DNA of 60,569 nucleotides from Candidatus Woesebacteria bacterium (GTDB lineage: Bacteria; Patescibacteriota; Microgenomatia; UBA8517). Below, piece after piece: positions 3,359 through 53,523 of this stretch. The notes beneath the pieces are model-generated. The model was not told the origin of the DNA and did no database searches. It saw only the letters and a program-made list of their open reading frames with translations. Made by a program: the position numbers and the translations under genes. The DNA lies in NCBI GenBank assembly GCA_020060845.1, contig JAGUZK010000043.1, positions 1 to 60,569 on the forward strand, given 5' to 3'. Numbering within the stretch: position 1 is the first letter of the stretch; every line of letters starts with the position of its first letter.

Positions 3359-5041
3359 ATGAATAACACTTGGCGACTTGCTAGTAAAGCTGAAAAGATT
3401 AAGGAGGTTTTTGATTTTAAGAGCAAAAAATTTGGTGAAGTGGTTGAGATCAAGGCAGAAGCTAAGGCAGGAGATGAATTTTTGAGCATTGATGTTTTCC
3501 TGCCGGGGGTAAACAGGAGTGATTGGAATGTTATAACTTCTGGTTGGCATACCTGGAGTGGGAGGGAAACCAGAGGCAAGGATGTGGGAATAGCTGACTT
3601 TCAGACTAAATTTTCAAAAAAGAAGACCGAAGTTACAGTTGAGCCGGGGATGGGTGGCGAGAGAATACCAGATAATGAAGCCAGAAGTTATGGTTTTGTG
3701 GTCTTTAGAAGCAAAGATGGGAAAAATAATATTGGAGTTGGCATTATCCCTAGCCTTTCTGAAATCGAGGACTTGAGGTTTAAGTTGGTTGGGGGAGGTG
3801 TTGTTGTGACAGTCAGAAAAAATCTTGAAAAATTAGATCACGCCAGAGAAGTTTCTTTCAAGCTTTTTCTTGCAAGAGGGATGTGTACTGAAATTATTTG
3901 GAGGTTTGGAGAGGAACTTGCAGGCTTAAACAAAATTAAACTTATGAAGGATAGAGTTATTTGGTTTTCTTGGGCGGCTTATGGAAAGGGGGTTAGACAG
4001 GAAAGGGATATTGAGCCTGAACTTCCCTATCTAGCGGAGGTGGGGGTGGATACTATCATAATTGATGATGGCTGGGAAAAAATGGTTGGTCAGTGGGAAG
4101 TGGATACTGATAAGTTTCCAGATATGATTGGGCTTGTTGGGAATATTAAAAAGCTTGGTATAAAACCGGGAATTTGGATTGCTCCGTTTATGGCGGTAAG
4201 AGAGTCGGAGATATTTAGTTTACATCCCGATTGGATAGTAAAAGATAGTGAAGGGCAAGTGCTTAGTGTTACCAACCCCCAGATTCAGCCGACAGGTCGC
4301 CTGTGGCCCTTTATTGAGAGGGCCGTTGGTCTTGATGTATCTTTACCTGAAGTCAGGGAATATCTTTATGGTGAATTTATTCGTTTGACTAAGATTGGTT
4401 TTGAAGTTTTTAAGGTTGATTTCGTCTCGATCCCTTTTGTTGGTCAGCTTGCCAGAAAGGGTAAAACTTCAGTTGGGTATTATCGGGAGTTTTTTCAGGA
4501 GCTAAGAGCGCGTGTTAGGGAAGCAACTGGGAGAGAAATTGAGCTTATTGGTTGCGGGGCGCCAATGATGGAAAGCATCGGCCTTTTTGAAGGGATAAGG
4601 GTCTCAGCAGACTCCGCAATGCCTAATATTGCCACACTTCGTTATTATGGCAGAATTTATAGGATTTTTAGCGCAATTCCAGTTTTGGGATCCCTAATAA
4701 GGGGAAAGGTTATGGATATCCACACTGTTATGTACCGAGATGCTGCGGCAGTTGCTTTCAGGCGCGCTCTTGTCTTTGGTAGGGCGTTTGGTCTTTTAGT
4801 TGATGGAGTGCATCTAAACGACCCCAAAATTTATATTGATAAGACTGAAAAAAGAAAAGTCATAGAGGCGCTTCCGGCATTCAAGTGGCTGGGGGTTTTG
4901 ACAAATCTTTTTATAGGAGATAGTCTTGTGCGTGCAGGGCTGCGGGGTAGGCTTGAGTGGCAGGGCTTTTTGGCTAGATTTAAAAAAGGGCAAGAGATGT
5001 GGATTGATGAGGCGACAGGAAATGTTTTGGTAAATGAGTAA
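3359..5041 (+). CDS. Alpha-galactosidase-like glycoside hydrolase (GH36/GH27-type TIM barrel)
   Basis: IIIDDGWE...KFPD...GIKPGIWIAPF and FKVDF motifs resemble melibiase-family catalytic barrels. Confidence 0.55.
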   Translation: MNNTWRLASKAEKIKEVFDFKSKKFGEVVEIKAEAKAGDEFLSIDVFLPGVNRSDWNVITSGWHTWSGRETRGKDVGIADFQTKFSKKKTEVTVEPGMGGERIPDNEARSYGFVVFRSKDGKNNIGVGIIPSLSEIEDLRFKLVGGGVVVTVRKNLEKLDHAREVSFKLFLARGMCTEIIWRFGEELAGLNKIKLMKDRVIWFSWAAYGKGVRQERDIEPELPYLAEVGVDTIIIDDGWEKMVGQWEVDTDKFPDMIGLVGNIKKLGIKPGIWIAPFMAVRESEIFSLHPDWIVKDSEGQVLSVTNPQIQPTGRLWPFIERAVGLDVSLPEVREYLYGEFIRLTKIGFEVFKVDFVSIPFVGQLARKGKTSVGYYREFFQELRARVREATGREIELIGCGAPMMESIGLFEGIRVSADSAMPNIATLRYYGRIYRIFSAIPVLGSLIRGKVMDIHTVMYRDAAAVAFRRALVFGRAFGLLVDGVHLNDPKIYIDKTEKRKVIEALPAFKWLGVLTNLFIGDSLVRAGLRGRLEWQGFLARFKKGQEMWIDEATGNVLVNE

Positions 5042-35596: not shown

Positions 35597-37154
<1,558 letters not shown>

Positions 37155-37357
37155 CTAAGGAGTTGATTTCACGGCACTTGTGCTTTATGCACAAGCTGTG
37201 ACACACCCCCTTTTAATGTGAGGGTTTAAGGTTATAAAACTTCACAACCTGCTTCCGGCTATATTTTGGATATTAATGTTGCAGACTTGTAAGTTGTAAG
37301 AAAACTGCAAAATTGCCAGTTGGTGAGGCGGGTTTTTTCTCGACTATATAATCTCTT

Positions 37358-38368
37358 CTAGCTTGTTCTTTCCAAGTTTTTTGTGACGATGACACGACCT
37401 TGGTCGTCAGTTCTAAAGGTTACAATAACGGATGAACTGCCATTAAGCGGTTCACTTAAGAATAGACGAATCTTGCCCTCATTTTCCAAGAATTCATAAT
37501 TGGTATATGTCACTATCATTCCTTCTAAGAACTCAAGGTTCTTAACTTTTTCGTAATCTTCATCATTTTGGCTTTCTTTGGGATAAATAATGTAAATTTT
37601 TTTGATGTCCTTGTCTATTACAGTTATCACAAATATTTCTTTATCGTTTAGAACCGGAAAACTTCTGTGATCTCCTTTTATTTCCTTAACTGTGCTATCA
37701 ATATTTTTTGCCTCGGATTGGTGTAGTTCAATGCCACCTGATTGCCAGCCTACTTCTAGAAGTTTTGATTTTTTGGAAAAGATTTGAATATCGTATAAGT
37801 AATAATCATTTCTAACAGATGTAAGGAGTTCGTTTGTATCAAGCACTAATTTGTAAATGTAGTCATCGTCTTCATACTCATAACTATCAGGATTTTGAGA
37901 AAAATAAAGTTTACGTTTAAGGTCCTTTATGTCATATTGAAGGTGATTCAGGTTGGCTCTTATTTCATAGATATCAGAAGAAAAATTTTTTGAAGTCATT
38001 TTTTCTAAAATGTAATCTTCGATTGAAGGATAAATTAATATCGCAAACAGAAGTAGGGTAGTAATAGCAATAAGTGACATATAGATAAGATTGAGGGTCG
38101 AGAGTATCAGTGTTTTTAATAGTTCAAATTTTGCTAAGGCTGATGATAATTTTTTAATAAAACCAATTTCACGAAAAGATATCCTTATCTTTAATATAGA
38201 CTTAGCTATAAAGTAAATAATGAAATAAAAATAAACGATTGCGTTAATTACGATAAATGCTCCAAAAAAAGGTGGGCTTTTGCTCTCAGTTAAAAGGAAA
38301 ATCAAAACATATGTTGCGGAAGAGAAGAAAAATAAGGCAAAGAAAGGGTACATAAGTAAATATAGCAT
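37358..38368 (-). CDS. Hypothetical membrane protein (about 4 N-terminal TM helices plus a soluble acidic C-terminal domain)
   Basis: 336-aa, very AT-rich ORF at the 16S-proximal edge of the island. No motif recognised. Confidence 0.55.
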   Translation of the reverse strand: MLYLLMYPFFALFFFSSATYVLIFLLTESKSPPFFGAFIVINAIVYFYFIIYFIAKSILKIRISFREIGFIKKLSSALAKFELLKTLILSTLNLIYMSLIAITTLLLFAILIYPSIEDYILEKMTSKNFSSDIYEIRANLNHLQYDIKDLKRKLYFSQNPDSYEYEDDDYIYKLVLDTNELLTSVRNDYYLYDIQIFSKKSKLLEVGWQSGGIELHQSEAKNIDSTVKEIKGDHRSFPVLNDKEIFVITVIDKDIKKIYIIYPKESQNDEDYEKVKNLEFLEGMIVTYTNYEFLENEGKIRLFLSEPLNGSSSVIVTFRTDDQGRVIVTKNLERTS

Positions 38369-38606
38369 AAACTATACCTGAGAGAAAAAAGAGGATAATG
38401 ATTATTTTGAAGCAAGGTCTTACTCAGGCAAAGAAGTATCTAGATCAGTTATCGGTGCGGGTAAAACAGAAGAAAATAAGCAGTGGATTGAGGATTTTTC
38501 TTATTTTGTAATTGTGGCGGAGAAAAGTCCTGTCAGGCAGGTGAAATTGCCTGGCTAACGAGTGATAATCCTCTGTTTTATGGCTAGGGTTTTTTGATGT
38601 TTAAAA

Positions 38607-38697
38607 GCGCGGAGGCTAAAAGGCTGACCCGCTTTCCCGGATCTAACCCCGGGACGGCGGACTGCTTTAGAGGCTTTTTGCCCAGTAGCCCCCGCAC
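38607..38697 (-). ncRNA. Candidate structured RNA (unclassified)
   Basis: On the minus strand, GUGCGGGGG pairs with CCUCCGCGC and GUCCGC with GCGGGU. Both include G-U pairs that become A-C mismatches on the plus strand. The inner hairpin is CCCGG-N8-CCGGG. Confidence 0.3.
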
Positions 38698-39151
38698 TTT
38701 TGGATACCAATCTTATCTCAATTATACCTTAAAATAGAAAAATTTCGACTACCTTATTTGGTTTTGTCCACGAAAGCCATCTTTAGCTAGTTGAGGCAGG
38801 CGAGTGTTTTCCTTTTCGATGGATTTCTTCAAGAGCTTCAATTTTTTTCGACTGGATGTCTTTATTCGCGCACCGCTGTTACTTCTTTTGATATAGGATC
38901 AATTTGTACAAGAAGATCACTTATTAGCTTTGTTGTATGTCTCTCAAGTTTTCCTTCAAGTTTAGCTACTTGTGTATAGGGAACCTCTTGCTCTGACAAT
39001 AATTTACTTATAACTTCACTTTGCTTTGCGACAAGCCGGCTCGAGTCAACAAGAATAGTAAATTGTTATACTTTTTATTAAGCCATTTAAGGATTTTCTT
39101 TGTCAACGATAGTTTTTCAAGATGTGATGCCAAGTTTCCGATTTATGATAG

Positions 39152-39225
39152 CCACAGTTTCGTCCCAGCCAAATAGCGAATATCCAGCGGGACTCATCAG
39201 TCCAGTGATTAAGTGGAGACTGTAG
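39152..39225 (-). ncRNA. Type III hammerhead ribozyme motif (HHR-1)
   Basis: Reverse complement: (CU)ACAGUC / UCCA-CUUAAUCAC-UGGA / CUGAUGA / GUCCC-...-GGGAC / GAAA / CUGU(GG). All core positions are present. Stems I and II are loop-closed and stem III is open. Confidence 0.8.
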
Positions 39226-39586
39226 CATTTAGGTAAAGGTATTACATTGGAGTGCGGAGAAGGAGATTGATTTGCGAAGATATAAAAAATTAATGATGCA
39301 AAATGGTTGCATCTTCGCGCTTCAACACTCTGCAGCTCTCACGCACTCCATGGCTATCCCCAGGCACCTTTTCCGAGCCCGCTTTGGACTAATAGGTATT
39401 TCGCCTAAAGACTTTTATAAGCCTAGATTTTATGATCCATTTTTCACCGAAAGCTTTCGGGGTATCACAACTGCCTGCAAACAGTTTCGTGACAAGGATA
39501 TTTGTTTGAGTACTACCTGCGTTCTTTTTCCTTCACCTCAGGGCCAGGTTAGAGGAATGGGGGAAAAACGCCAGATGTCGCCCGAA

Positions 39587-39745
39587 CTAAATCATTTCCG
39601 GAGACCCCATCGCGCAGAAAGCTGCGAGTGCGATAGTAACTGCAATTGCCAAAAAGACCGCAGCAATTTTTTGCGATTTACCTGCAGTCAAGATGGCCAA
39701 GACTGCAGAAACAAGTGCGATTACCAAAAGCCAATTCGCGTTCAT
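39587..39745 (-). CDS. 52-aa two-TM hydrophobic peptide inside the ribozyme-bounded cassette
   Basis: AAAGGAG, 5 nt, then ATG. Translation MNANWLLVIALVSAVLAILTAGKSQKIAAVFLAIAVTIALAAFCAMGSPEMI. It falls below the 60-aa cutoff of the ORF track. Confidence 0.5.
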   Translation of the reverse strand: MNANWLLVIALVSAVLAILTAGKSQKIAAVFLAIAVTIALAAFCAMGSPEMI

Positions 39746-39894
39746 GTTTTCTCCTTTTTGTTAATGTTATGATGAGTATCTTGGTTAATCATCCAATCCT
39801 TCTAAAAAAGCGAGGATTATCACGTACAATATCATCAGATACAACTTGACTCCCTCAAAGGAATTAAATTCCAACTCGCTATTTTAACGAACTA

Positions 39895-39962
39895 ACAGTT
39901 TCGTCCCAGCCAAATAGCGAATATCCAGCGGGACTCATCAGTTCGGCTATGCCGAAGACTGT
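39895..39962 (-). ncRNA. Type III hammerhead ribozyme motif (HHR-2)
   Basis: Reverse complement: ACAGUC / UUCGGC-AUA-GCCGAA / CUGAUGA / GUCCC-...-GGGAC / GAAA / CUGU. The core is complete and stem I has 6 bp. Confidence 0.88.
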
Positions 39963-40150
39963 GTATGAGGAGCTTGATGAAAGAAAATGAAACGTAAATA
40001 AATAATTGCTAATAATAGAAAAAATTTATTGGTTGGGATTTGCATTCCCTTGCTTCATTTAGATTCAAACAAGCTCCTCTGGGAGGAGGGAATTACGGTT
40101 GGCCCCGTAGGCTTTGCTTTCTTAGCCTACAGGGCCAATGCCGTTTCAAA

Positions 40151-40270
40151 TTACAAACCTAAAGCGCTTTGAATGACCGGAATTAATGGAACCACTACGG
40201 TCATCCAACAGGCCACTGTGGCTGCAGCCAATAAGGCGCAGGCTGCGGCGAACTTAACTACTGGCGGCAT
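40151..40270 (-). CDS. 39-aa hydrophobic peptide
   Basis: GGAGG, 8 nt, then ATG. Translation MPPVVKFAAACALLAAATVACWMTVVVPLIPVIQSALGL. Followed by a 14-bp interrupted hairpin (40101-40140). Confidence 0.45.
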   Translation of the reverse strand: MPPVVKFAAACALLAAATVACWMTVVVPLIPVIQSALGL

Positions 40271-40415
40271 GGTTTTTACCTCCTTCCTTTTCTAGTATGA
40301 AAAACCATGGGTGCAGCTAAGCTTTTTAGCTAAACTCAAAGTTCTTCAATCTAATTTTTTAAATGTGCTAAGTAATCTTTTAGATTTCGACAAATGTCAA
40401 AATCTAAAACTTACT

Positions 40416-40518
40416 GGGGACTAGATAGAGGGTGGAAATTAGATGGCGGGGCGCTTAGCGCTTTGCTTTTCGAACAAGTTGTGCTTGTTCTATCTAATTC
40501 TTCTCTCATCTAGTCCCC
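40416..40518. repeat. 103-bp element with perfect 11-bp terminal inverted repeats (MITE-like or long RNA hairpin)
   Basis: GGGGACTAGAT ... ATCTAGTCCCC. The arms extend imperfectly (AGAG/CTCT), with internal hairpins GAACAAG/CTTGTTC and GCGC-tta-GCGC. Confidence 0.5.
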
Positions 40519-40623
40519 CTTGGACACTCTCCTCTCTGGCTCTAGCCAAATCGCCCATATAGAGCAATAGGCATTAATCCAAATTGATAAATCTCCAGGT
40601 CATTCACCGAAGTGAATGCAAAA

Positions 40624-41640
40624 TTACTTGGTGGCATAGATGAAATTGCCGCCAATATCAGAGCCGAATCCAAGTTTATCTCCAAAGGGAATTAAACTTA
40701 CAAACCAGGCGTAGTTGTATGCAACAAATTGCCCACTGCCTGTGAAGATGGCCACGCCGGAATCGTTGGGGGAAATGGCTACTGCCCCTACTCCCCTAAA
40801 GATATCGTTAAAAGCTTCCACTGCAGATAACCATCGTAGCTGCAGCTTTCCTGAGCGGCAAACAAGGTCTCCACCAGATGGCTTCCATTCAACGCGCTCG
40901 CAATACTCATCTGATGAGTAATAGACCCCGTTGCTGTAAAGCACTGCTAATGTGCCCCCAGGAGTGGTAAAGGCCAGCTTATAGGACTGCGCGTCAAGAG
41001 GGACACTGTGGGGGTAACTACCTTTGTACTCGGTCTTTTCGACTTTGCCAGTGAGGTAATTCCCCTTGTATAGGTATCCGTCTTTTCCTCGGAAGTAAAT
41101 CCAGTCTTCCTGAACTAGAACGAATTCTGGTTCGTATCCTACCAGATGACCGAAGCGGTCGATCCGGTTAAGACCGAAGTCATAGACACGAATCGTCCAT
41201 TCACCGCCGGGCTCTTGAACTTGTGCCGAGAAGGCACAATTGTCCCGCGAAATTGTGGGATTACGGAAAGACGCGGCAGCAGCAAATGTCAGATTTGAGA
41301 CGAAGACAGGCCATCCCACTGGATCAATCTCGTAGTATAATATCTCCCACGAGTGGGATTTTTCGTCCCAAACTTCCTGCAGGTATGGCCAAACAGGGCA
41401 TACTTTCACCCTGCCTTCTTCCGGCTTGACGAAAACGGCGGTTTTCAGTGGCAGGGGCGTCTTCGTCTCGCTCGGCGGCGGGCAGCTCGGGTGCGTGGGA
41501 TTGCGACGACACCCCTCGATGCTCATCGCCGTAGCCGCGCTGGTGTTGCTCTGGGGAACTGAAATTGCCACCATGAGCAGGAAAAAGAACAGGGCGGTGA
41601 TAACCGACAGGATACGAAACAGTTTCTGGTTGCGGTTCAT
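40624..41640 (-). CDS. Secreted hypothetical protein (signal peptide plus Pro-rich linker)
   Basis: AAGGAG, 8 nt, then ATG at 41640 (MNRNQKLFRILSVITALFFFLLMVAISV...). Visibly higher G+C than its surroundings. No family recognised. Confidence 0.6.
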   Translation of the reverse strand: MNRNQKLFRILSVITALFFFLLMVAISVPQSNTSAATAMSIEGCRRNPTHPSCPPPSETKTPLPLKTAVFVKPEEGRVKVCPVWPYLQEVWDEKSHSWEILYYEIDPVGWPVFVSNLTFAAAASFRNPTISRDNCAFSAQVQEPGGEWTIRVYDFGLNRIDRFGHLVGYEPEFVLVQEDWIYFRGKDGYLYKGNYLTGKVEKTEYKGSYPHSVPLDAQSYKLAFTTPGGTLAVLYSNGVYYSSDEYCERVEWKPSGGDLVCRSGKLQLRWLSAVEAFNDIFRGVGAVAISPNDSGVAIFTGSGQFVAYNYAWFVSLIPFGDKLGFGSDIGGNFIYATK

Positions 41641-42605
41641 CTCAAAAAACTCCTTTTGGACTAGATTAAAATGGTTCGACCCAATTTTCCTTGCGAGCCA
41701 TTTGAGCTGTGACACTTGGCGTGTGACTTTCACTTCTTTGCCAATGTCATCAGGGCCTTGTTTTCTACTCAGACATTGAGGATTGCGATCTCGACTAGGT
41801 CGAAGAAAGCCTAACTCATGCTTTTTGAAAGCAGGTGCCTTTGTAAGTACCTCACTAGAGGGTGGGGAAGAAACAAGCTTATGGCTTATTTTCTCCGTAC
41901 CCTCTATGAGGATATTGCCTTCAGTAATTTTTACCCGGATATTTAAAAGAGCGATATTAAGTTTCTAACTAACTAAATTTTGCTGTGAGCTATTCACAAC
42001 TTATTCAGTGTTATTAGAAAACTTAAACTGACCTTAACGGTCAGTTGAAAGAGGGCAGTGTTCATAGAAAATTTTGGATCCACCGCAAACCTCTCTCAGC
42101 TAACCGCTAGTGAAATTTCTTTGAGGCCTTAGAGGGATTATTGCGTTGGTGGGTCCAGACAATTTATTAAATTATCCAGACCCCTTAAACGCAAAATCCA
42201 CCTTTAGAGAGGTGGGTAATTATTTAACTATCAAAAAGACAGTTAATCAAAAAATTTTTTAATTAACCGTTACCAGAATCTTGCCAGCTCTGGTAGGGCT
42301 GTCCTCTAAAGCATCTATTATCCTTAGCAAAATGCTTTGGATGTGTAAATTTTCAATTTTTAATTACCCCAGAATAGAAGCTAGTTCAAAACCTTGAGGT
42401 TTTGAGAGCTTCGCTAGCTTATAGCATCTGAGTTCACTATCTCTGCTCGAATTCTAGGAAATTCTCGCAGGTATTGAAATCAGCTGTAATATTAAATTAT
42501 CCTAGAGTGTAAGCAGTCTAGCATATAGAGTGCTATTTGTCAAGTCTCCGCCTTAGGCGGAGTGGTGGGTTGTGAGAAATGAGTAGTGAGTCGTAGAATA
42601 GATAA

Positions 42606-42965
42606 GTGAAGAAAAAGATACAAAGACTTGAAGATATTGAAGTATATAAAGAATCTCTTGTTTTAGCCAAAGAGGTTTTTGACCTTTGCAAGAATCCTAG
42701 CCTAAAAAAAGAGTATTCGATATGTGAACAAATAAAGCGAGCTTGTGTTTCGGTATCTGCTAATATCGCAGAGGGTTATGGAAGACTAATAAGGAAGGAC
42801 TTTTCGCAGTTTCTTTCGATAGCTTTAGGTTCAGTGAACGAGACAGTGGCTTTGCTTGATATTATTGGGGTCAATTTTAGCAATATCGATATAAGAGCTT
42901 TACGGTCAAGCTATAATATTTTGGGGAAGCGAATATACGCTTACAGAAGGAGGTTGTTGTATTGA
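42606..42965 (+). CDS. Four-helix-bundle protein (23S rRNA intervening-sequence protein / Avd-like family)
   Basis: LEDIEVYKESLVLAKEVF...QIKRACVSVSANIAEGYGR...FLSIALGSVNETVALLDI matches the family signature as I recall it. Confidence 0.8.
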   Translation: MKKKIQRLEDIEVYKESLVLAKEVFDLCKNPSLKKEYSICEQIKRACVSVSANIAEGYGRLIRKDFSQFLSIALGSVNETVALLDIIGVNFSNIDIRALRSSYNILGKRIYAYRRRLLY

Positions 42966-43092
42966 ACGCACAACTCATCACTCACTTCTCACTACGATAG
43001 TCGGTACAATCCGAAGACCTTATACATTTTCACACTATCTTTTCACGAGTTCAGATTGAGGCTGGCTATATAAAGGTACCGCTTTTTGATTA

Positions 43093-44052
43093 TTAATGCG
43101 ATGGTTCACGGTCGGATATCATAAAAGGGTAGAAAGGGTAAAAGTCAACTTCTTGAATAATCGGATATACTGTAAGAAGTCTGTCTATGAATTTATTTTT
43201 ACCTATTTCGCTTTTGGGGGATTTGTGTATTTCTTCTTTTGTTTTACCTCCAGCAATGGCTTCGCGGATAAGATATTCGTGTTCGGAGGGTAGCACGAAA
43301 ACTAATTCTCCTTTTTTAACGATAATTGGAGCGTCTCTTCTTATCTCTCGAGGATCTGAATCTGGTAAAAAATTTTTTGGAAGCTTTTGATACAAAAGAT
43401 CGATTATTCTTTCTATTTCACTTAAAGTTACAAAATCGAGCCTAAATCCTTTATGTTTGGGTAAATTGGCGATAAGTCGGGATAATTGATTTTCTCCACT
43501 ACCATCTGTAAACCAGCCGAGCTTGGGCATTCGTTTATCAAAGTCGATTTCGAATTGTTGAAGATGTCTTAAAATATCTTTTTTCTCCATTCCCCTTGCT
43601 GCCATTGCCACTAGTCCCACGACCCACCCTTGTTCGCTAATGATAGTATCAATTTCGTTTTTTACATCGGGAGGTTTTGCGCATACTACTTGATTAACCC
43701 CGATAACCCAGGATGGTAAAAAAAGTTTTACATCTCTAAATGGTGTTTTGCCGACAACTCTTTTGGTCACAAAAGCCATTTGGTTGGCATATCTTATTAA
43801 AAAGGATTGTTTCTCGGGAGGGCTTTTTAGAGTTTCTGCAACTGCTTTCCAGGGGTCTTTTCTGGGGTTGGGGAAATATAGCCCAACAGTTGTTTGGGTA
43901 AATTCAATCGGAGTTTTCGGTGACATTGTGGCAAGGTATGTAAGCATCTCACGGGTTCCGTACCTTCTTCTGAAAGCATGCCCTACATCTGTGTTTGGAT
44001 CAGGGCCAAGTAATGCAACTGCAGCAATCCTTTTAATAGTACTTGCATTCAA
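43093..44052 (-). CDS. Hypothetical protein, probably co-transcribed with the ATPase at 44151-46400
   Basis: 319-aa ORF, same strand, 98 nt downstream of the ATPase gene. No motif recognised. Confidence 0.55.
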   Translation of the reverse strand: MNASTIKRIAAVALLGPDPNTDVGHAFRRRYGTREMLTYLATMSPKTPIEFTQTTVGLYFPNPRKDPWKAVAETLKSPPEKQSFLIRYANQMAFVTKRVVGKTPFRDVKLFLPSWVIGVNQVVCAKPPDVKNEIDTIISEQGWVVGLVAMAARGMEKKDILRHLQQFEIDFDKRMPKLGWFTDGSGENQLSRLIANLPKHKGFRLDFVTLSEIERIIDLLYQKLPKNFLPDSDPREIRRDAPIIVKKGELVFVLPSEHEYLIREAIAGGKTKEEIHKSPKSEIGKNKFIDRLLTVYPIIQEVDFYPFYPFMISDREPSH

Positions 44053-44150
44053 TTCTTGAGGGGTTAGAACACGAGTTTCGGTTCCGTTTATGATTTCTTC
44101 GTATTGAAAGTTTTCTTTTGAAGAAGTACTACCTTCACTTATTGATAAAA

Positions 44151-46400
44151 TTATTTGTGTTCAAGAATTGTAACCTCATTGGGAGTTCCGGTTTGGTTTT
44201 CCTCAATTTCTGTATTTTCAAGTTCTCGAACTTTTTCGTTTTTCAGTTTTTTTGCATACCTTTCTCTTGAGACTCTGATTACTTTTTCGCGGTTCTGATT
44301 TCGTGACATTGGGAGAGGGAGCGTGGTTGCAACAAACGGTCTTACAATATGGCCATCGATTGTCATTCTTATTGCAATTTGGAAGTTCTGCAGGTTGACA
44401 AGGTCGTTTTGTGAAAAAACCTCTGCGAATTCTTTATGTATTCTTGATGCATCTTCAGCTCCAACTGCAAAAGCAATTAGCGTTCCTGCGTTCCCCAAGA
44501 TAGCCTTGGTAACATGTTCCGGGAGCTGACCCATATATTGATTTGCTAAAGTTAGGGAAAGACCAAATTTTCTTGCTTCGGAGAGTATCTTGATAAATGA
44601 ATCTGTGGCAAAATTCTGAAACTCATCAACATATAGAAAAAAGGGAGTCCTTTGCTCTTTGGAGATATCTACTCTTCTCATTGCAGCAAGTTGGAATTTG
44701 GTAATGAGTGTGGCCCCTAGCAAAGCCGCATTATCTTCACCGAGCCGTCCTTGAGAAAGATTTGCAATAAAGATTTTTTTATTATTGATAACTTCATCAA
44801 GCGAAACTGTTGATTTTGGGTAGCCGATAACCCGCCGTATTATAGGGGATGTAACAAACTGCCCGACCTTATTTTGGATGGGAGCTATTGCTTCCTTTTG
44901 AAGCCTATCTGGCATCTTCTCAAATTCTTCTTTCCAAAAGTGGATTAAAGCTGGATCATTAATCTTTGAATAGACCCTATTTCTGTAGGAGCGGTTGGCT
45001 AAAAGGCTTAAAACATCCGATAGCGTGGTTCCAGGAATTTCAGTCAGAGTTAAGAATGAATTACGGAGTATATATTCCATCCTTGCAGACCAGACATTTG
45101 CCCAGACTTTAGTAAAAATGCTCATCAGTCCCGATGTAACAAGTTCTGCTTCTTCTCGATTTGTAACTTCGAGTGGATTAATGGTAATAGGGAATTCCCT
45201 ATCTGCTGGGTTAAAGTAGATTGTATCATTTATGCGATTTTTGGGTATGTAATCAAGCAGATCCTCGCAAAGATCTCCATGCGGGTCAATTACAGCAACA
45301 CCTCGACCTTTTTTAAAATCGTCTATTGCCATATTGGCTATCATTGTGGATTTACCGGTACCAGTTTTTCCCACTGTCCATATGTGTCGGAGCCGATCGG
45401 CATCTTTTATGCCAAAAATAGCATTGTGGTTTTTAAAGATCGTTTTAGCGAAGAAGTTTATTTGAAGCTTTTGAGACTCATCTAGCCCTTCTGCTATTGG
45501 CAGGTTGTTTGGAGGTTCTGAGAGTATGTCTCCTCCCCAGGCAACTCCCGGAACCTTAATCTTTTCATTTGGAAGGTGCCAGAGGGTTGCTATTTCCTCA
45601 ATGTTTAAGATGTTCCCTCCCAGGACACGGCGATTCAGAGTAAAGCTTTTTTCGCGGTTTTTGTCAAACAAAGGTATTTTAAAAACTTTTATTGAGTTTC
45701 CATCAGGACGATTAAAAACCCCCAAGGCGGATAAAAATTCGGTTTGTGTTGTATTTGAATTACTGATAAGCCGTAAACTTACCCTAAACCCCGGGTAATT
45801 AATTTTTTCAAAAATAATATTTGCATCCGGTCTTCTGGTATATGTACCGTCGTCTCTTCTCGTTCCTCTTTCAGCAAAGTCCCTGGCTCTTGATTGCCAA
45901 ATTTCATCTACTGACTCAAGTGCTATCTGAAAAACAAAGACTCCTCCTCTTTCCATCTTTGTTAGGACAGCAAGCAGGGATGAGAGCGGGTCTATCTCGC
46001 TAAAATCTTTATAAACTGCTAGAGGGTAGTAATTTCCTCTTACCAGAGTTAGGCTGATAATATTTAAGTTCTCATTTTTTAGTGGATCTGAAATTTTTTG
46101 GATTGTAGATGTGGGGTAGTTTGATTGAATTTGGGACTCAATAAAAGGTATTAGTTCTTTGTCTGCACTTATCAAAAAGCTTATCTCTTGACCGATTGAA
46201 GCAATTTCCAGAGCTAGACCCTTTGGTTTTTTCCCGAGTAAGATTTTTTCCCAAAATCCAACGCCGTTGATTTTGGTGAGAGCTGAAAGCATTGTCTTTG
46301 CAGCCTCGGGGGTGGTAGACGAATCGCGAGGGGTTTTTATTGAGAGTGTGATAATTTCTGACATAGCTAGTTTATTATACATAAAAGATAGATTAAACAA
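44151..46400 (-). CDS. FtsK/HerA/VirD4-superfamily P-loop ATPase (type IV coupling-protein-like) with unknown ~300-aa N-terminal domain
   Basis: Walker A VGKTGTGKST, VIDPHGD, Walker B FFLYVDEFQNF, and ARKFGLSLTLANQYMGQL resemble TraD/TraG/VirD4-type NTPases. The likely start is MSEIITL at 46364. Confidence 0.65.
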   Translation of the reverse strand: MFNLSFMYNKLAMSEIITLSIKTPRDSSTTPEAAKTMLSALTKINGVGFWEKILLGKKPKGLALEIASIGQEISFLISADKELIPFIESQIQSNYPTSTIQKISDPLKNENLNIISLTLVRGNYYPLAVYKDFSEIDPLSSLLAVLTKMERGGVFVFQIALESVDEIWQSRARDFAERGTRRDDGTYTRRPDANIIFEKINYPGFRVSLRLISNSNTTQTEFLSALGVFNRPDGNSIKVFKIPLFDKNREKSFTLNRRVLGGNILNIEEIATLWHLPNEKIKVPGVAWGGDILSEPPNNLPIAEGLDESQKLQINFFAKTIFKNHNAIFGIKDADRLRHIWTVGKTGTGKSTMIANMAIDDFKKGRGVAVIDPHGDLCEDLLDYIPKNRINDTIYFNPADREFPITINPLEVTNREEAELVTSGLMSIFTKVWANVWSARMEYILRNSFLTLTEIPGTTLSDVLSLLANRSYRNRVYSKINDPALIHFWKEEFEKMPDRLQKEAIAPIQNKVGQFVTSPIIRRVIGYPKSTVSLDEVINNKKIFIANLSQGRLGEDNAALLGATLITKFQLAAMRRVDISKEQRTPFFLYVDEFQNFATDSFIKILSEARKFGLSLTLANQYMGQLPEHVTKAILGNAGTLIAFAVGAEDASRIHKEFAEVFSQNDLVNLQNFQIAIRMTIDGHIVRPFVATTLPLPMSRNQNREKVIRVSRERYAKKLKNEKVRELENTEIEENQTGTPNEVTILEHK

Positions 46401-46647
46401 GGGAGAAGTAAGTATTGGCGTCCAGAGGGGGGGCGTTGTGTCTGGTGGAAATTGGTTGCCTCTTTTGGGTGTTGGGATGGTTTCTATTTTTACTTTTTGA
46501 TTTTTGATCTATTAGATTTTGTGGCCAATTTGTGATAAATTTATAAAAGCAAGTAACTTGAAAAGTATTTTGAGCTTGATGTTTGTGGTCTAGCGGTAAA
46601 GCATTTCTGACAAGACGAGAGTTTTGCTTAAAATTGTAAGTATTTTT

Positions 46648-46720
46648 GCGCGAGTGGCTCAGTGGTTAGAGCACCTTCCTGATAAGAAGGGGGCCGCAGG
46701 TTCGATTCCTGCCTCGCGCA
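46648..46720 (+). tRNA. tRNA-Ile (anticodon GAU)
   Basis: Acceptor GCGCGAG/CUCGCGC, anticodon arm CCUUC-CUGAUAA-GAAGG, T-arm GCAGG-UUCGAUU-CCUGC. Confidence 0.9.
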
Positions 46721-46820
46721 CCCCCATGTACTGGGATCAGACTGTAGGGATTGTAGTAAAGGTTATTGGAGCTCTCGAAAAGAGGTGTAATTGGATAGGC
46801 AGGGATTAAGACGGTGAGGT

Positions 46821-47583
46821 TTGAAATACTTGCAGACTGTGGCAATTATGAAGCTAAAATTTCCCAAATCGCCAACTACATCTTGGGTTATACGAACAAA
46901 GAATGAGGAAAAATGGCTGGGTGAAGTATTAAAAGCCCTTTTTATGCAGAGCCGGTTGGATTTTGAAGTAGTAATTATGGATTCTGGGTCAACAGATAGG
47001 ACCCTAGAAATTGCAAAAGATTTTCCAATTAGAAAAGTTATCAATCTGCCTGAAAATGAATTCAACTACAGTTATGCGCTTAATCTTGGAATTAAAAAGG
47101 CTTGGGGCAAATATGTAGGAATTATCTCTGGTCATTCACTTCCTGTAAGCCGCACATGGTATCAGGATGCAATGGAAAACTTCTCTGACCCAAAAATGGC
47201 AGCTGTGACAGGACACTATACCTCTCTTCCTGATGGTTCCTTAGACGAAAAACTCGGAGATTTATTTTTTAGTCTGAAGCGCTTAGAGAAAGAGTTTTAC
47301 TGTAAGTGGATGACCAATACCAACGCGATTATTAGAAAAGATTTATGGGAAAAAGTATCCTTTTGATGAAAGGCTAGAAGAATGTGAGGATTATGATTGG
47401 GCATGTGAGATGATTGCTCGAGGTTGGAACATAGTTAAAGACCCAAAATTTAATGTCTATCATTCCCATGGTGGAATTGGTAGACCTACCTATATAGAAA
47501 GACTCCCAACTTGGCAAAGGGTTTGTGCTTTAATTGACAAGAAGAAGAGACCAAGCAGGTCGTATTCAAGATTGTTTGGCTGA
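46821..47583 (+). pseudogene. Family 2 glycosyltransferase interrupted by a frameshift (or sequencing error) near 47345-47366
   Basis: The N-terminal part (VIRTKNEEKWL...VIMDSGSTDRT) stops at 47366. The next frame continues YPFDERLEECEDYDWACEMIARGWNIVKDPKFNVYHSHGG... to TGA at 47581-47583. The shift lies at the GGGAAAAAG run. Confidence 0.7.
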
Positions 47584-47750
47584 GTTTTTTCTTCTGTAGT
47601 TTGAAAAGATCTGCTTGGTCTGACATTAACCTTTTTTACAAGAATGTAGGGGTGTTTGAGTTATAAGGTTAATTTCTTTGCTGCGAAAGAGGTAAAACCA
47701 GGCTAGCGAAAGGAATTTGCAAGGTGAGGAGGCTTGGTAGCATGCCATTT

Positions 47751-49415
47751 CTAATGATTTCCATACGCGTCTGCCATATATTGAGTTTTCTCCGACATTA
47801 TTCTTAAGAGGTCCGTTTTTTCATTCTTGATTATATTTCTTAGCTCAGAAATATTTTTGACCCCCAGATCCGCCAGGGTTCGCGCTGCATAACTTAAGTA
47901 CTCATTTATCCAAAAAGACATCGAGTTTGCCTTCTTTTCAAGGTACATAAAACCAGGTTTCCCTTCAGGGTTATATGTCCTTCCTGAGGCGTCTGACCTT
48001 TTCTGTCTTATATTTTCGTCTTCAGACTCAATTAATTGAGTTACAGGACTTGCAGATCCGGGATAAGGTTGGCACACCTTACCATTTAAGTGTTGGAAAA
48101 ATAAGTCTCCGGTTTCAATTGTCCCGTGTACCATTTTCTGGTTACCAAGGCAGCAGTCTATACCCATTATCAGGGCGGTCCCTATTGATCTGTCGATACC
48201 TCCCTCTACTATTACTGAGGTAGAGTTAAAAACAGGATCGGTTACAACATTATAGACATCTTCGACGGTTGTTATTGCCATTCCGTTTATGGCTGATGTG
48301 CACTGTTGTCCGCCACCATGTCCAAAGACGAGGGCATCCACACGGATCTTGGGAGAAATCAACCTTAATGCTTGATTTTTGTCGGCGATTTGACCTACAA
48401 AAATTTCAATTGTATCTCCAAATTCGGCCCTTAATGCCTGTGCCATGTCTATTACTCTTTTGTCTGATCCGATGGTATAGATTCTAAAAAGCCTGATTCC
48501 AGCTTTTTCATAAAGTTTTTTGGCAACTTTAATCTCCTCCTCAACATCAATTCCTATTGATGCACCAATGTTTCTATTGACTCTTTCTTTTTCTGCAGGG
48601 GGGATCTTAAGTTGATCAATGGTTGACTTTGCCTTGTTAGCAAGTGAAATTCTTCTTTCTATATCAAAAGCGAAAATAGAATTTCTGGGGATAAAGCAGG
48701 GCATATAGGCAATTGCCGCTGTGACAAGCGTATCTCTCCAGCCAGTAACGGGAGGCATTGACCCCAGCCCTATTATTCTCCTTGGATATTTACCGACCTT
48801 GTTGAAAAGACCGCTAGTTAAGATTTCGCGCCTGCTTATTATTCTGTCGGTGCTTCTCTTTTTATATCCTAGCTCGGAAAATGCGGGAGTTCGGGTTGGA
48901 AACGGGTAGCTTTTGCTAAATCCTAGAGAGGCCTCAATAGTTTTGGATCTTTGATTGGATCGAGGGGGAATACTAATAATTTGTGCTTCAAGGTCATGGA
49001 TTATTTTGTATATTGTCTCGTTTTGGTTTTGGTCAAAGAAAACTGCTCGTTGGGCAAGTGCAACCTTTCGCCTTTGAGGTCCCATTTGCAAGATCAAGGG
49101 AATGCTGTTTTTGAATACCAGCCTAGTGCTATCAATGTTAGTTATTATTAACCCCAAGCTTGGTGAGTCATGTTTATAAAAATAGCGAGTATAAAAGGTC
49201 TTTGTATCAGCTATGATATCTGGGTAGTGTTTTAACTTATCTGTGTCATCAAGACATTCAAGATGGTAAGCAAAGTCAAGCCCGTTTTTACTTATTTGAT
49301 CATATCTTATTCTTGATATCTCCTCGGGATATGGTTCGGGAAGAGGGTGGGAGTATCCGATCTTTTTTCCTTTGGGGTCGACAACTCTTGCAAGGGTAAT
49401 ACCTTTTTTGTACAT
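47751..49415 (-). CDS. IMPDH/GMP-reductase-family TIM-barrel protein with a long unrelated N-terminal region
   Basis: The C-terminal half has FGHGGGQQCTS (catalytic Cys loop-like) and VIVEGGIDRSIGTALIMG (phosphate-binding-like). The N-terminal ~250 aa were not recognised. Confidence 0.55.
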   Translation of the reverse strand: MYKKGITLARVVDPKGKKIGYSHPLPEPYPEEISRIRYDQISKNGLDFAYHLECLDDTDKLKHYPDIIADTKTFYTRYFYKHDSPSLGLIITNIDSTRLVFKNSIPLILQMGPQRRKVALAQRAVFFDQNQNETIYKIIHDLEAQIISIPPRSNQRSKTIEASLGFSKSYPFPTRTPAFSELGYKKRSTDRIISRREILTSGLFNKVGKYPRRIIGLGSMPPVTGWRDTLVTAAIAYMPCFIPRNSIFAFDIERRISLANKAKSTIDQLKIPPAEKERVNRNIGASIGIDVEEEIKVAKKLYEKAGIRLFRIYTIGSDKRVIDMAQALRAEFGDTIEIFVGQIADKNQALRLISPKIRVDALVFGHGGGQQCTSAINGMAITTVEDVYNVVTDPVFNSTSVIVEGGIDRSIGTALIMGIDCCLGNQKMVHGTIETGDLFFQHLNGKVCQPYPGSASPVTQLIESEDENIRQKRSDASGRTYNPEGKPGFMYLEKKANSMSFWINEYLSYAARTLADLGVKNISELRNIIKNEKTDLLRIMSEKTQYMADAYGNH

Positions 49416-49450
49416 GATAAAACCGCAAAAATGATATATTATTTCTGGGA

Positions 49451-50047
49451 GTGTTGCAATATGCCCAAAAGGATATAGCTATTGAAATGTCATCAAAAAT
49501 CAATGTTTACACTAGAAATCAGAAAAAAGTTGAGGAGATAAAGAGGCTGCTGCCGGCTGTTGAACTAGTTTCCTGTGATCTTGAAGTCGAAGAGATCCAA
49601 TCTCTAGATCCCGTCGAAGTTGCCGTTGCTAAGGCCAAACAAGCATATGAGAAAAGTCAAAAGCAAGCTGGAATTATTGAAGATGTATCTTTGAATATCA
49701 ATTATCTTAATGGCCTGCCTGGAACTTATATAGATGCCTTTATGAAAACGCTTGGAAATGATGGAATATTAAAAATTCTTAGAGGTGCAAAAGACCGAGG
49801 GGCTGAAGCTTTGATTATTGTCGTCTATACGGATGAGAAAGGTGACATGCATATTTTTGACGGAAGAGTAAAAGGAAGAATATCTGATAAGGTACTTGGG
49901 GAGGGTTTTGGTTGGGATCCTATATTTATTCCCGAAGGAGATGATCAGACTTTTGCCCAGATGACGCCGGAACAGAAGGATAAATTTTCCATGCGAGCTA
50001 TTGCTTTTAGGAAACTGGGGTTGTGGCTGCAGGGTCTTGACGGATAG
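49451..50047 (+). CDS. rdgB: Non-canonical purine NTP pyrophosphatase (RdgB/HAM1 family)
   Basis: GLPGTYIDAF, FGWDPIFIPEG...TFAQM and KDKFSMRAIA motifs. The likely start is ATG 49487. Confidence 0.8.
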   Translation: MLQYAQKDIAIEMSSKINVYTRNQKKVEEIKRLLPAVELVSCDLEVEEIQSLDPVEVAVAKAKQAYEKSQKQAGIIEDVSLNINYLNGLPGTYIDAFMKTLGNDGILKILRGAKDRGAEALIIVVYTDEKGDMHIFDGRVKGRISDKVLGEGFGWDPIFIPEGDDQTFAQMTPEQKDKFSMRAIAFRKLGLWLQGLDG

Positions 50048-50195
50048 GATATTATCTATGTATAATAGGCATTGCCTTTTAATTTTAATGATTTTGAGGC
50101 ACGGTTTCTGCTAATGAGAAAAATCTTGACAAGAGTAAACCAACTAAAGCGGGTTTTTTTGTTGTTGTAGATTATTTCTAGAGAAAGTAGCAGAT

Positions 50196-50218
50196 ACCGG
50201 CCTTGAGCCGGTTTTTTT
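50196..50218 (+). terminator. Rho-independent terminator
   Basis: ACCGGC-cttga-GCCGGT followed by T7. Confidence 0.6.
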
Positions 50219-50244
50219 ATGATGTAGGTTATGATTCGCAACTG

Positions 50245-50317
50245 GGGCCGTTGGCTCAGTTGGTAGAGCGCGTCATTTGCAATGACGAGGTCGCCGGTTC
50301 GATCCCGGCACGGTCCA
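50245..50317 (+). tRNA. tRNA-Ala (anticodon UGC)
   Basis: Acceptor GGGCCGU/ACGGUCC with the G3:U70 identity pair, anticodon arm CGUCA-UUUGCAA-UGACG, T-arm GCCGG-UUCGAUC-CCGGC. Confidence 0.9.
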
Positions 50318-50528
50318 CCCTAGCTGGGCGGATCGAGGTAGGTCTTGACAGTTATTGAATGGTGGTTGGCAACTGGAATAATTATCGTTGCGAGCCACCA
50401 CTCAAGGATTGTTAAGACTAGCTATTTTGATATTGCACCTTGACAACTGAAGAGAAAGAATAATCGACCACAATTTCTGTTATTGTGGTCGTAAGTAGGC
50501 CAATTCCTTGTATTTTTACAAGGTTAAT

Positions 50529-53523
<2,995 letters not shown>

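Follow-up and report, generated by a model that had tools for sequence, protein, structure and literature searches.

A predicted membrane-peptide gene between two type III hammerhead ribozymes in a Candidatus Woesebacteria genome, and the conserved structured RNA that follows it

Two hammerhead ribozymes on the same strand, with a very small open reading frame between them, raise the question of what the RNA released by the two cuts would be: the message of a peptide, a functional RNA in its own right, a circle, or the transcript of a ribozyme-controlled toxin. We analysed such a locus in a stretch of 60,569 nt (the window; contig C24), whose nearest public relatives are Candidatus Woesebacteria (CPR/Patescibacteria). 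The source genome comprises 0.85 Mb on 60 contigs, with 39.5% G+C and an estimated completeness of 93.5%. The locus belongs to a minus-strand block situated between the 16S gene (35597-37154) and the tRNA and 23S genes, which are more than 9 kb away. Across 35597-53513 the 16S and 23S genes are separated by 13 kb, a distance taken up by tRNA genes, the accessory island and genes with housekeeping roles (IMPDH-like, Ham1). On balance the 52-aa ORF is probably a genuine, fast-evolving gene for a small envelope peptide, the message of which would be freed by hammerheads acting as generic punctuation modules.

The upstream ribozyme is located at 39893-39964 (minus strand, 38.4 bits with RF00008, predicted cut 39957/39956) and the downstream one at 39152-39225 (minus strand, 39.5 bits, predicted cut 39218/39217). 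The genome has no further hammerheads. A stretch in helix II and the core is identical in both (48/48 nt), its two copies lying 741 nt apart. Both ribozymes contain the core CUGAUGA...GAAA with C17 and the cleavage triplet GUC^U, and their helices measure 4-6, 13 and 5-8 bp. The core, the C17 (GUC^) triplet, the closed helices I and II and the open helix III are shared with the type III form of RF00008. With E values of about 1e-6 (local) both copies nevertheless remain below the Rfam gathering score of 48.5 bits for this family; scores of 38-43 bits fall short of it mainly because of a 23-25-nt insert in helix II that is foreign to the viroid-derived model. Across 11 related copies helices I, II and III vary in sequence yet stay paired; core and helices are complete throughout, helix II is long and bulged, and one copy carries U17 instead of C17. 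Judged by core, helices and covariation, we regard both window elements as real type III hammerheads.

The predicted cuts bound an RNA segment of 739 nt on the minus strand (39218-39956). It consists, in this order, of the rest of the upstream hammerhead, a 147-nt leader, the 52-aa ORF and a structured 3' region. The ORF (39587-39745, minus strand, MNANWLLVIALVSAVLAILTAGKSQKIAAVFLAIAVTIALAAFCAMGSPEMI) starts with ATG, and the sequence upstream of the start codon reads ...acaaaaAGGAGaaaacATG, with the Shine-Dalgarno (SD) motif AAAGGAG at 39757-39751 and a spacer of 5 nt to the ATG. The first-pass annotation had described this ORF as the only convincing one on the minus strand between the cleavage sites, led by AAAGGAG and composed of two hydrophobic helices joined by a short loop, and in these three respects it held up well. 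All remaining minus-strand ORFs between the cuts are 25-29 aa long and have no SD; hydropathy and an AlphaFold model (single-sequence, mean pLDDT 76.5) divide the predicted helical-hairpin membrane peptide into helices 3-20 and 25-46, connected through a G-K-S-Q turn. The C-terminal tail, SPEMI, comprises 5 residues, is net negative and has no basic cluster. The predicted accessibility of the SD is only average and thus uninformative, and the idea that it might be sequestered was set aside.

The length of the ORF alone is not significant; the combination of its features is. Counting both strands, the genome contains 755 strongly SD-led ATG codons, 50 of which begin ORFs of 40-70 aa. The 52-aa ORF is the only one in this set to encode two or more TM segments, which amounts to one case in 1.7 Mb of strand sequence. 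In a codon log-odds model, for which 388 long ORFs from the same genome served as training set, it obtains 0.255 bits per codon; the value for true genes is 0.241 +/- 0.116, and 97% of small ORFs in wrong frames score lower. At 0.221 an antisense frame comes close to the score of the ORF, and codon use therefore leaves the strand undecided. A plus-strand ORF of 166 aa (39272-39772) was rejected, its frame being broken at the homologous locus G077 described below. The 52-aa ORF occurs once in the genome. A word-indexed search of 5.8 billion proteins returned only the peptide itself, phmmer over 1.84 billion representatives added one composition-biased match of 513 aa, and scans against Pfam, NCBIfam and PHROG gave only sub-threshold, generic two-TM noise. 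When the AlphaFold model was compared with the PDB by Foldseek, nothing reached E < 1. Judging by these searches the ORF is an orphan, and it is most likely genuine, translated and a lineage-specific small membrane protein.

Regarding the neighbouring genes, the minus-strand block begins with a secreted protein of 369 aa (40624-41733), for which a syntenic ortholog with 35% identity exists at the homologous locus. The last gene ahead of the upstream hammerhead is a hydrophobic ORF of 39 aa (40151-40270, minus strand, SD GGAAGGAGG) that encodes a TM peptide; a 13-bp hairpin (40101-40136, minus strand) lies directly past its stop codon and about 140 nt ahead of the ribozyme. A membrane protein of 336 aa is a further neighbour, and none of these three proteins has a match in Pfam or PHROG. 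The island is richer in G+C, and the 369-aa protein, used as its marker, was found in 2 of the 139 genomes of the order. The minus-strand block can thus be described as a rare accessory island, since this protein and the conserved RNA discussed below each occur in only 2/139 of these genomes. A VirD4/TraG-like ATPase nearby matches phrog_5156, and no phage hallmarks such as an integrase or capsid gene were found near the locus. Most likely, the 52-aa ORF forms part of a fast-evolving cluster of envelope genes made up of the secreted protein, tiny TM peptides and the polytopic membrane protein.

Several further observations were made in the surroundings of the locus. An ORF of 45 aa at 38862-38999 (minus strand) shows similarity (33% over 36 aa, E = 6e-6) to the C-terminal portion of a protein of 134 aa encoded on L016, a metagenomic contig that carries a hammerhead of the same subclass as the window, and by this similarity it may be a gene remnant. 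On L016 the 134-aa gene directly precedes a 115-nt element with two hairpins (3586-3699), which is 86% identical to 42375-42488 on the plus strand of the window; here the element is located 3.5 kb away and on the other strand. Its hairpins fold well (z = -2.6 to -5.6), one loop/stem shows a compensatory difference, and no Rfam match was obtained at E <= 1. DNA 99.9-100% identical to the window is present on L022 (run SRR7867194, cited in a paper on fracture fluid from a South African deep mine) and on L019 and L020 (IMG 3300007351 and 3300007354, from the SURF/DeMMO mine in South Dakota), which points either to carry-over from one data set to another or to a population of very wide distribution. 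L019 (JGI Ga0104751_1124737) opens with 68 nt made up of T10 and the complete TruSeq universal adapter of Illumina, joined to window position 40138; this is adapter contamination in the deposited assembly. L019 and L020 both end at 39215; a reading of these ends as RNA ends was dropped, the samples being DNA metagenomes from the SURF/DeMMO mine that probably share reads.

Only one homologous cassette was found. It is located in Ca. Woesebacteria GW2011_GWB1_38_8b (G077, LBVN01000031), a member of another Woesebacteria genus; on longer metagenomic contigs from the same population it is found downstream of a 16S gene, a position shared with the window cassette. The order of its elements is a secreted protein (35% identical to the 369-aa protein of the window), a hammerhead, an SD-led ORF of 60 aa with two TM segments, a lipoprotein of 121 aa, about 300 nt of non-coding sequence, a second hammerhead, several tiny TM ORFs together with a lipoprotein, and a polytopic membrane protein (33% identical). 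Blastn over 139 genomes of the order and 401 of the class found no cassette outside the G077 lineage, and neither did a covariance model of the conserved RNA run over the order; a hammerhead pattern search over GTDB, JGI metagenomes and IMG/VR returned the G077 lineage and hammerheads that are not homologous. The independent cassettes thus total two, a number from which selection on the 52-aa ORF is not measurable.

The peptides of the two cassettes cannot be aligned. Comparisons among the 52-, 60-, 88-, 39-, 42-, 43- and 57-aa peptides by BLASTP and shuffled global alignments gave no similarity beyond composition, and a homolog search with the 60-aa peptide retrieved only a strain variant with 97% identity. 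Between the strain variant L049 and G077 the 60-aa ORF shows 2 nonsynonymous and 0 synonymous changes, which are too few to test selection and do not suggest purifying selection. At the essential core position G5 the G077 lineage varies in its upstream hammerhead, which reads CUAAUGA in the MAG (L008 4095-4166) and the canonical CUGAUGA in a groundwater variant (L049 1-105); the copy of one strain may thus be inactive. The first-pass annotation had looked to homologous cassettes for conservation of the ORF and its hydrophobicity pattern. Of this expectation the sequence part failed, the peptide not being retained in G077, and the architectural part survived, as an analogous two-TM ORF occupies the same slot. 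The same annotation had counted a broken frame beside conserved ribozymes as evidence against its proposal, and the comparison goes half of this way: the sequence of the ORF has diverged, and the ribozymes and the RNA of about 300 nt are strongly conserved.

This RNA, a structured and apparently non-coding region with several hairpins, is located between the stop codon of the ORF and the downstream hammerhead (39245-39510, minus strand) and includes a hairpin of about 100 nt at about 39249-39349. Within it, at 39313-39295, we noted a terminator-like hairpin followed by a T-run. The region has 80-89% identity to its G077 counterpart, and 76-89% with the downstream hammerhead included, varying with the aligned stretch, and compensatory changes between the two are found both in its hairpins and in helix II. 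In contrast, the flanking proteins of window and G077 are only 33-35% identical, while the 16S genes are 87% identical. The RNA has no match in Rfam and was detected in 2/139 genomes of the order, a search with a covariance model included. Conserved about as well as 16S while its neighbours drift, it is in our view a more interesting object than the peptide.

The pattern of conservation also bears on whether the peptide or the RNA is the functional product. It is tentatively possible, if rather unlikely, that the functional product is the 739-nt RNA itself, chiefly its 3' domain of about 300 nt acting as a non-coding RNA, with the ORF untranslated or incidental. That the 3' domain and hammerhead are far better conserved than the flanking proteins, with compensatory changes, is consistent with this explanation, as are the lack of detectable similarity between the ORF regions of the two cassettes, the two nonsynonymous and no synonymous changes in the analogous ORF between strains, and the folding of the whole 739-nt segment, which is better than that of shuffled sequences (z = -2.7). 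Against it stands the slot itself, which in both cassettes is occupied by an ORF that starts with ATG, has an SD and encodes two TM helices. The combination of SD and two TM segments is as rare in the genome as given above, and the codon use of the 52-aa ORF fits that of real genes. Moreover, the G077 segment includes an obvious lipoprotein gene and can for this reason be regarded as mRNA.

The distribution of hammerheads in related genomes bears on how the two window copies should be understood. Type III hammerheads occur in 19/139 genomes of the order. We inspected about 20 further loci, from Woesebacteria and one Parcubacteria contig, and found the ribozyme core mostly 30-360 nt past the stop codon of an ORF on the same strand (73-445 aa), with one outlier at 620 nt. 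The ORFs ahead of the ribozymes encode soluble, secreted or membrane/polytopic proteins. In at least 7 loci (L012, L027, L033, L035, L038, L042, L048) the following gene is convergent, its end being no more than about 90 nt away, and in L012 a GC-rich hairpin lies immediately 5' of the ribozyme. Located behind the stop codons of such varied genes, the ribozyme appears to be a general module placed after genes. Closely spaced same-strand pairs that bracket a gene are present in the window (739 nt between the cuts), in G077 and in G043/G044, where the unit of small TM gene and hammerhead occurs twice in succession. In the two latter genomes the arrangement is a 94-aa TM protein, a hammerhead, an 86-aa TM protein and a second hammerhead (L027 on G043:C5, L035 on G044:C11), with a spacing of 393 nt; of the two ribozymes the first is aberrant in its core (CUUGAAGAG). 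Many Woesebacteria have hammerheads of a subfamily in which helix II is short (GUCC-AAAA-GGAC) and helix III is preceded on its 5' side by a conserved AGCACC motif. L016, which belongs to the same long-helix-II subclass as the window, carries an SD-led two-TM ORF of 88 aa followed by about 340 nt and a hammerhead; its 3' region does not align with the conserved RNA of about 300 nt.

By comparison with these loci, the window cassette is best read as two successive modules of gene and 3' hammerhead, and the ribozymes are, by the same comparison, copies of a generic module of this kind rather than a device specific to the peptide. In the preferred reading a minus-strand transcript would span the 369-aa gene, the 39-aa gene with its hairpin and then both hammerheads. 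The upstream hammerhead would end the message of the 369-aa and 39-aa genes and give the peptide mRNA a 5'-OH, and the downstream one would trim this mRNA just past the structured 3' region, leaving a 2',3'-cyclic phosphate. The product would be a discrete mono-cistronic RNA of 739 nt, its stability and translation uncoupled from those of its neighbours. Flanking cleavage that uncouples the mRNA of the ORF had already been proposed in the first-pass annotation and is plausible. The peptide would form a helical hairpin with the basic KSQK loop on the cytoplasmic side, and our guess is that it serves as a small structural or accessory subunit of the envelope rather than as a toxin. Cleavage in vivo, translation of the peptide and an effect on RNA stability are things that we infer only, from the sequence.

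The same two cuts would also deliver the ends needed for a circle. Here the 739-nt segment would be ligated by RtcB or by a hammerhead into an SD-bearing RNA, either a coding circle or a stable circular non-coding RNA. The unit between the two same-sense hammerheads does have the size of a viroid or retrozyme, and a second genus retains the layout with two ribozymes. Circularisation is possible, since both ends come together in a single reconstituted hammerhead whose helix III has 5 bp, and since a full-length RtcB (541 bits) is encoded in the genome. However, RtcB is common in bacteria and archaea (10/14 control genomes), many related hammerheads are single and located at operon ends, where cleavage alone accounts for them, and no long-range clamp between the 5' and 3' parts of the segment was found beyond helix III. 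Nor did we find tandem repeats or multiple copies of the unit in the genome, which holds one copy with its two hammerheads. Circles from clustered bacterial hammerheads were sought by Perreault et al. 2011 (PMC3088659), and none were found. We consider a circular product improbable. Decidedly improbable is a combined reading, in which the circle would be sealed by RtcB, the domain of about 300 nt would be the functional core, as a scaffold for stability or ligation or as a regulatory RNA, and the slot would hold rapidly exchanged, SD-led genes for membrane peptides. If true, it would constitute a natural protein-coding RNA circle of bacteria on a conserved framework of ribozyme and RNA.

Most type I toxins have a single TM segment, and holins carry one or more TM domains followed by a highly charged C-terminal tail. 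A membrane-active toxin of type I or a holin-like pore former under ribozyme control, as the first-pass annotation had suggested, is highly improbable. In favour of this reading, the peptide is small and strongly hydrophobic, has an SD and no relatives, and is encoded in an accessory island of raised G+C that occurs in only 2/139 related genomes. Against it, the peptide combines two TM helices with a 5-residue acidic tail, is encoded once per genome and has no neighbour from a phage or lysis family, and scans of Pfam, NCBIfam and PHROGs up to E <= 10 matched it to no model of a holin or a type I toxin. A lysis partner (endolysin, spanin) was not present among the neighbours, and a consensus scan of the plus strand at 39150-39900, which is weak evidence, found no sigma-70-like promoter opposite the ORF. 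The hammerheads in the order follow genes of every kind and are therefore not specific to toxicity. The label of toxin or holin should be dropped for the 52-aa peptide.

Compared to known systems, the peptide shares with the type I toxins Hok, Fst, TisB, Ibs and Ldr its small size, hydrophobicity and SD, and differs from them in having neither a model match nor, by the consensus scan, a promoter-like signal for an antisense RNA, as well as in its single copy. Class II holins also have two TM domains; the window peptide lacks their charged C-terminal tail and a lysis partner. With retrozymes and viroid-like satellites the locus has in common the unit size (about 600-1000 nt), the hammerheads of the same polarity at the ends and the availability of an RtcB ligase. 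In contrast to them, the window unit is a single DNA copy without features of a retroelement and contains an SD-led ORF.

Full-text literature searches retrieved no papers on hammerheads in this phylum. The clustered hammerheads of bacteria were described by Perreault et al. [quoted passage not shown] These clusters likewise consist of two same-strand hammerheads a few hundred nt apart around one small gene of variable identity. The window locus differs from them in that it lies on a CPR (Woesebacteria) chromosome and not in a recognisable prophage, that both ribozymes are of type III with an unusually long, bulged helix II of 13 bp, and that a conserved structured RNA of about 300 nt lies between the gene and the downstream ribozyme. 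The locus thereby adds a clean, twice-conserved case of gene-flanking hammerheads apparently outside prophages and favours the view that hammerheads are routine operon punctuation and 3'-end modules in ultra-small bacteria.
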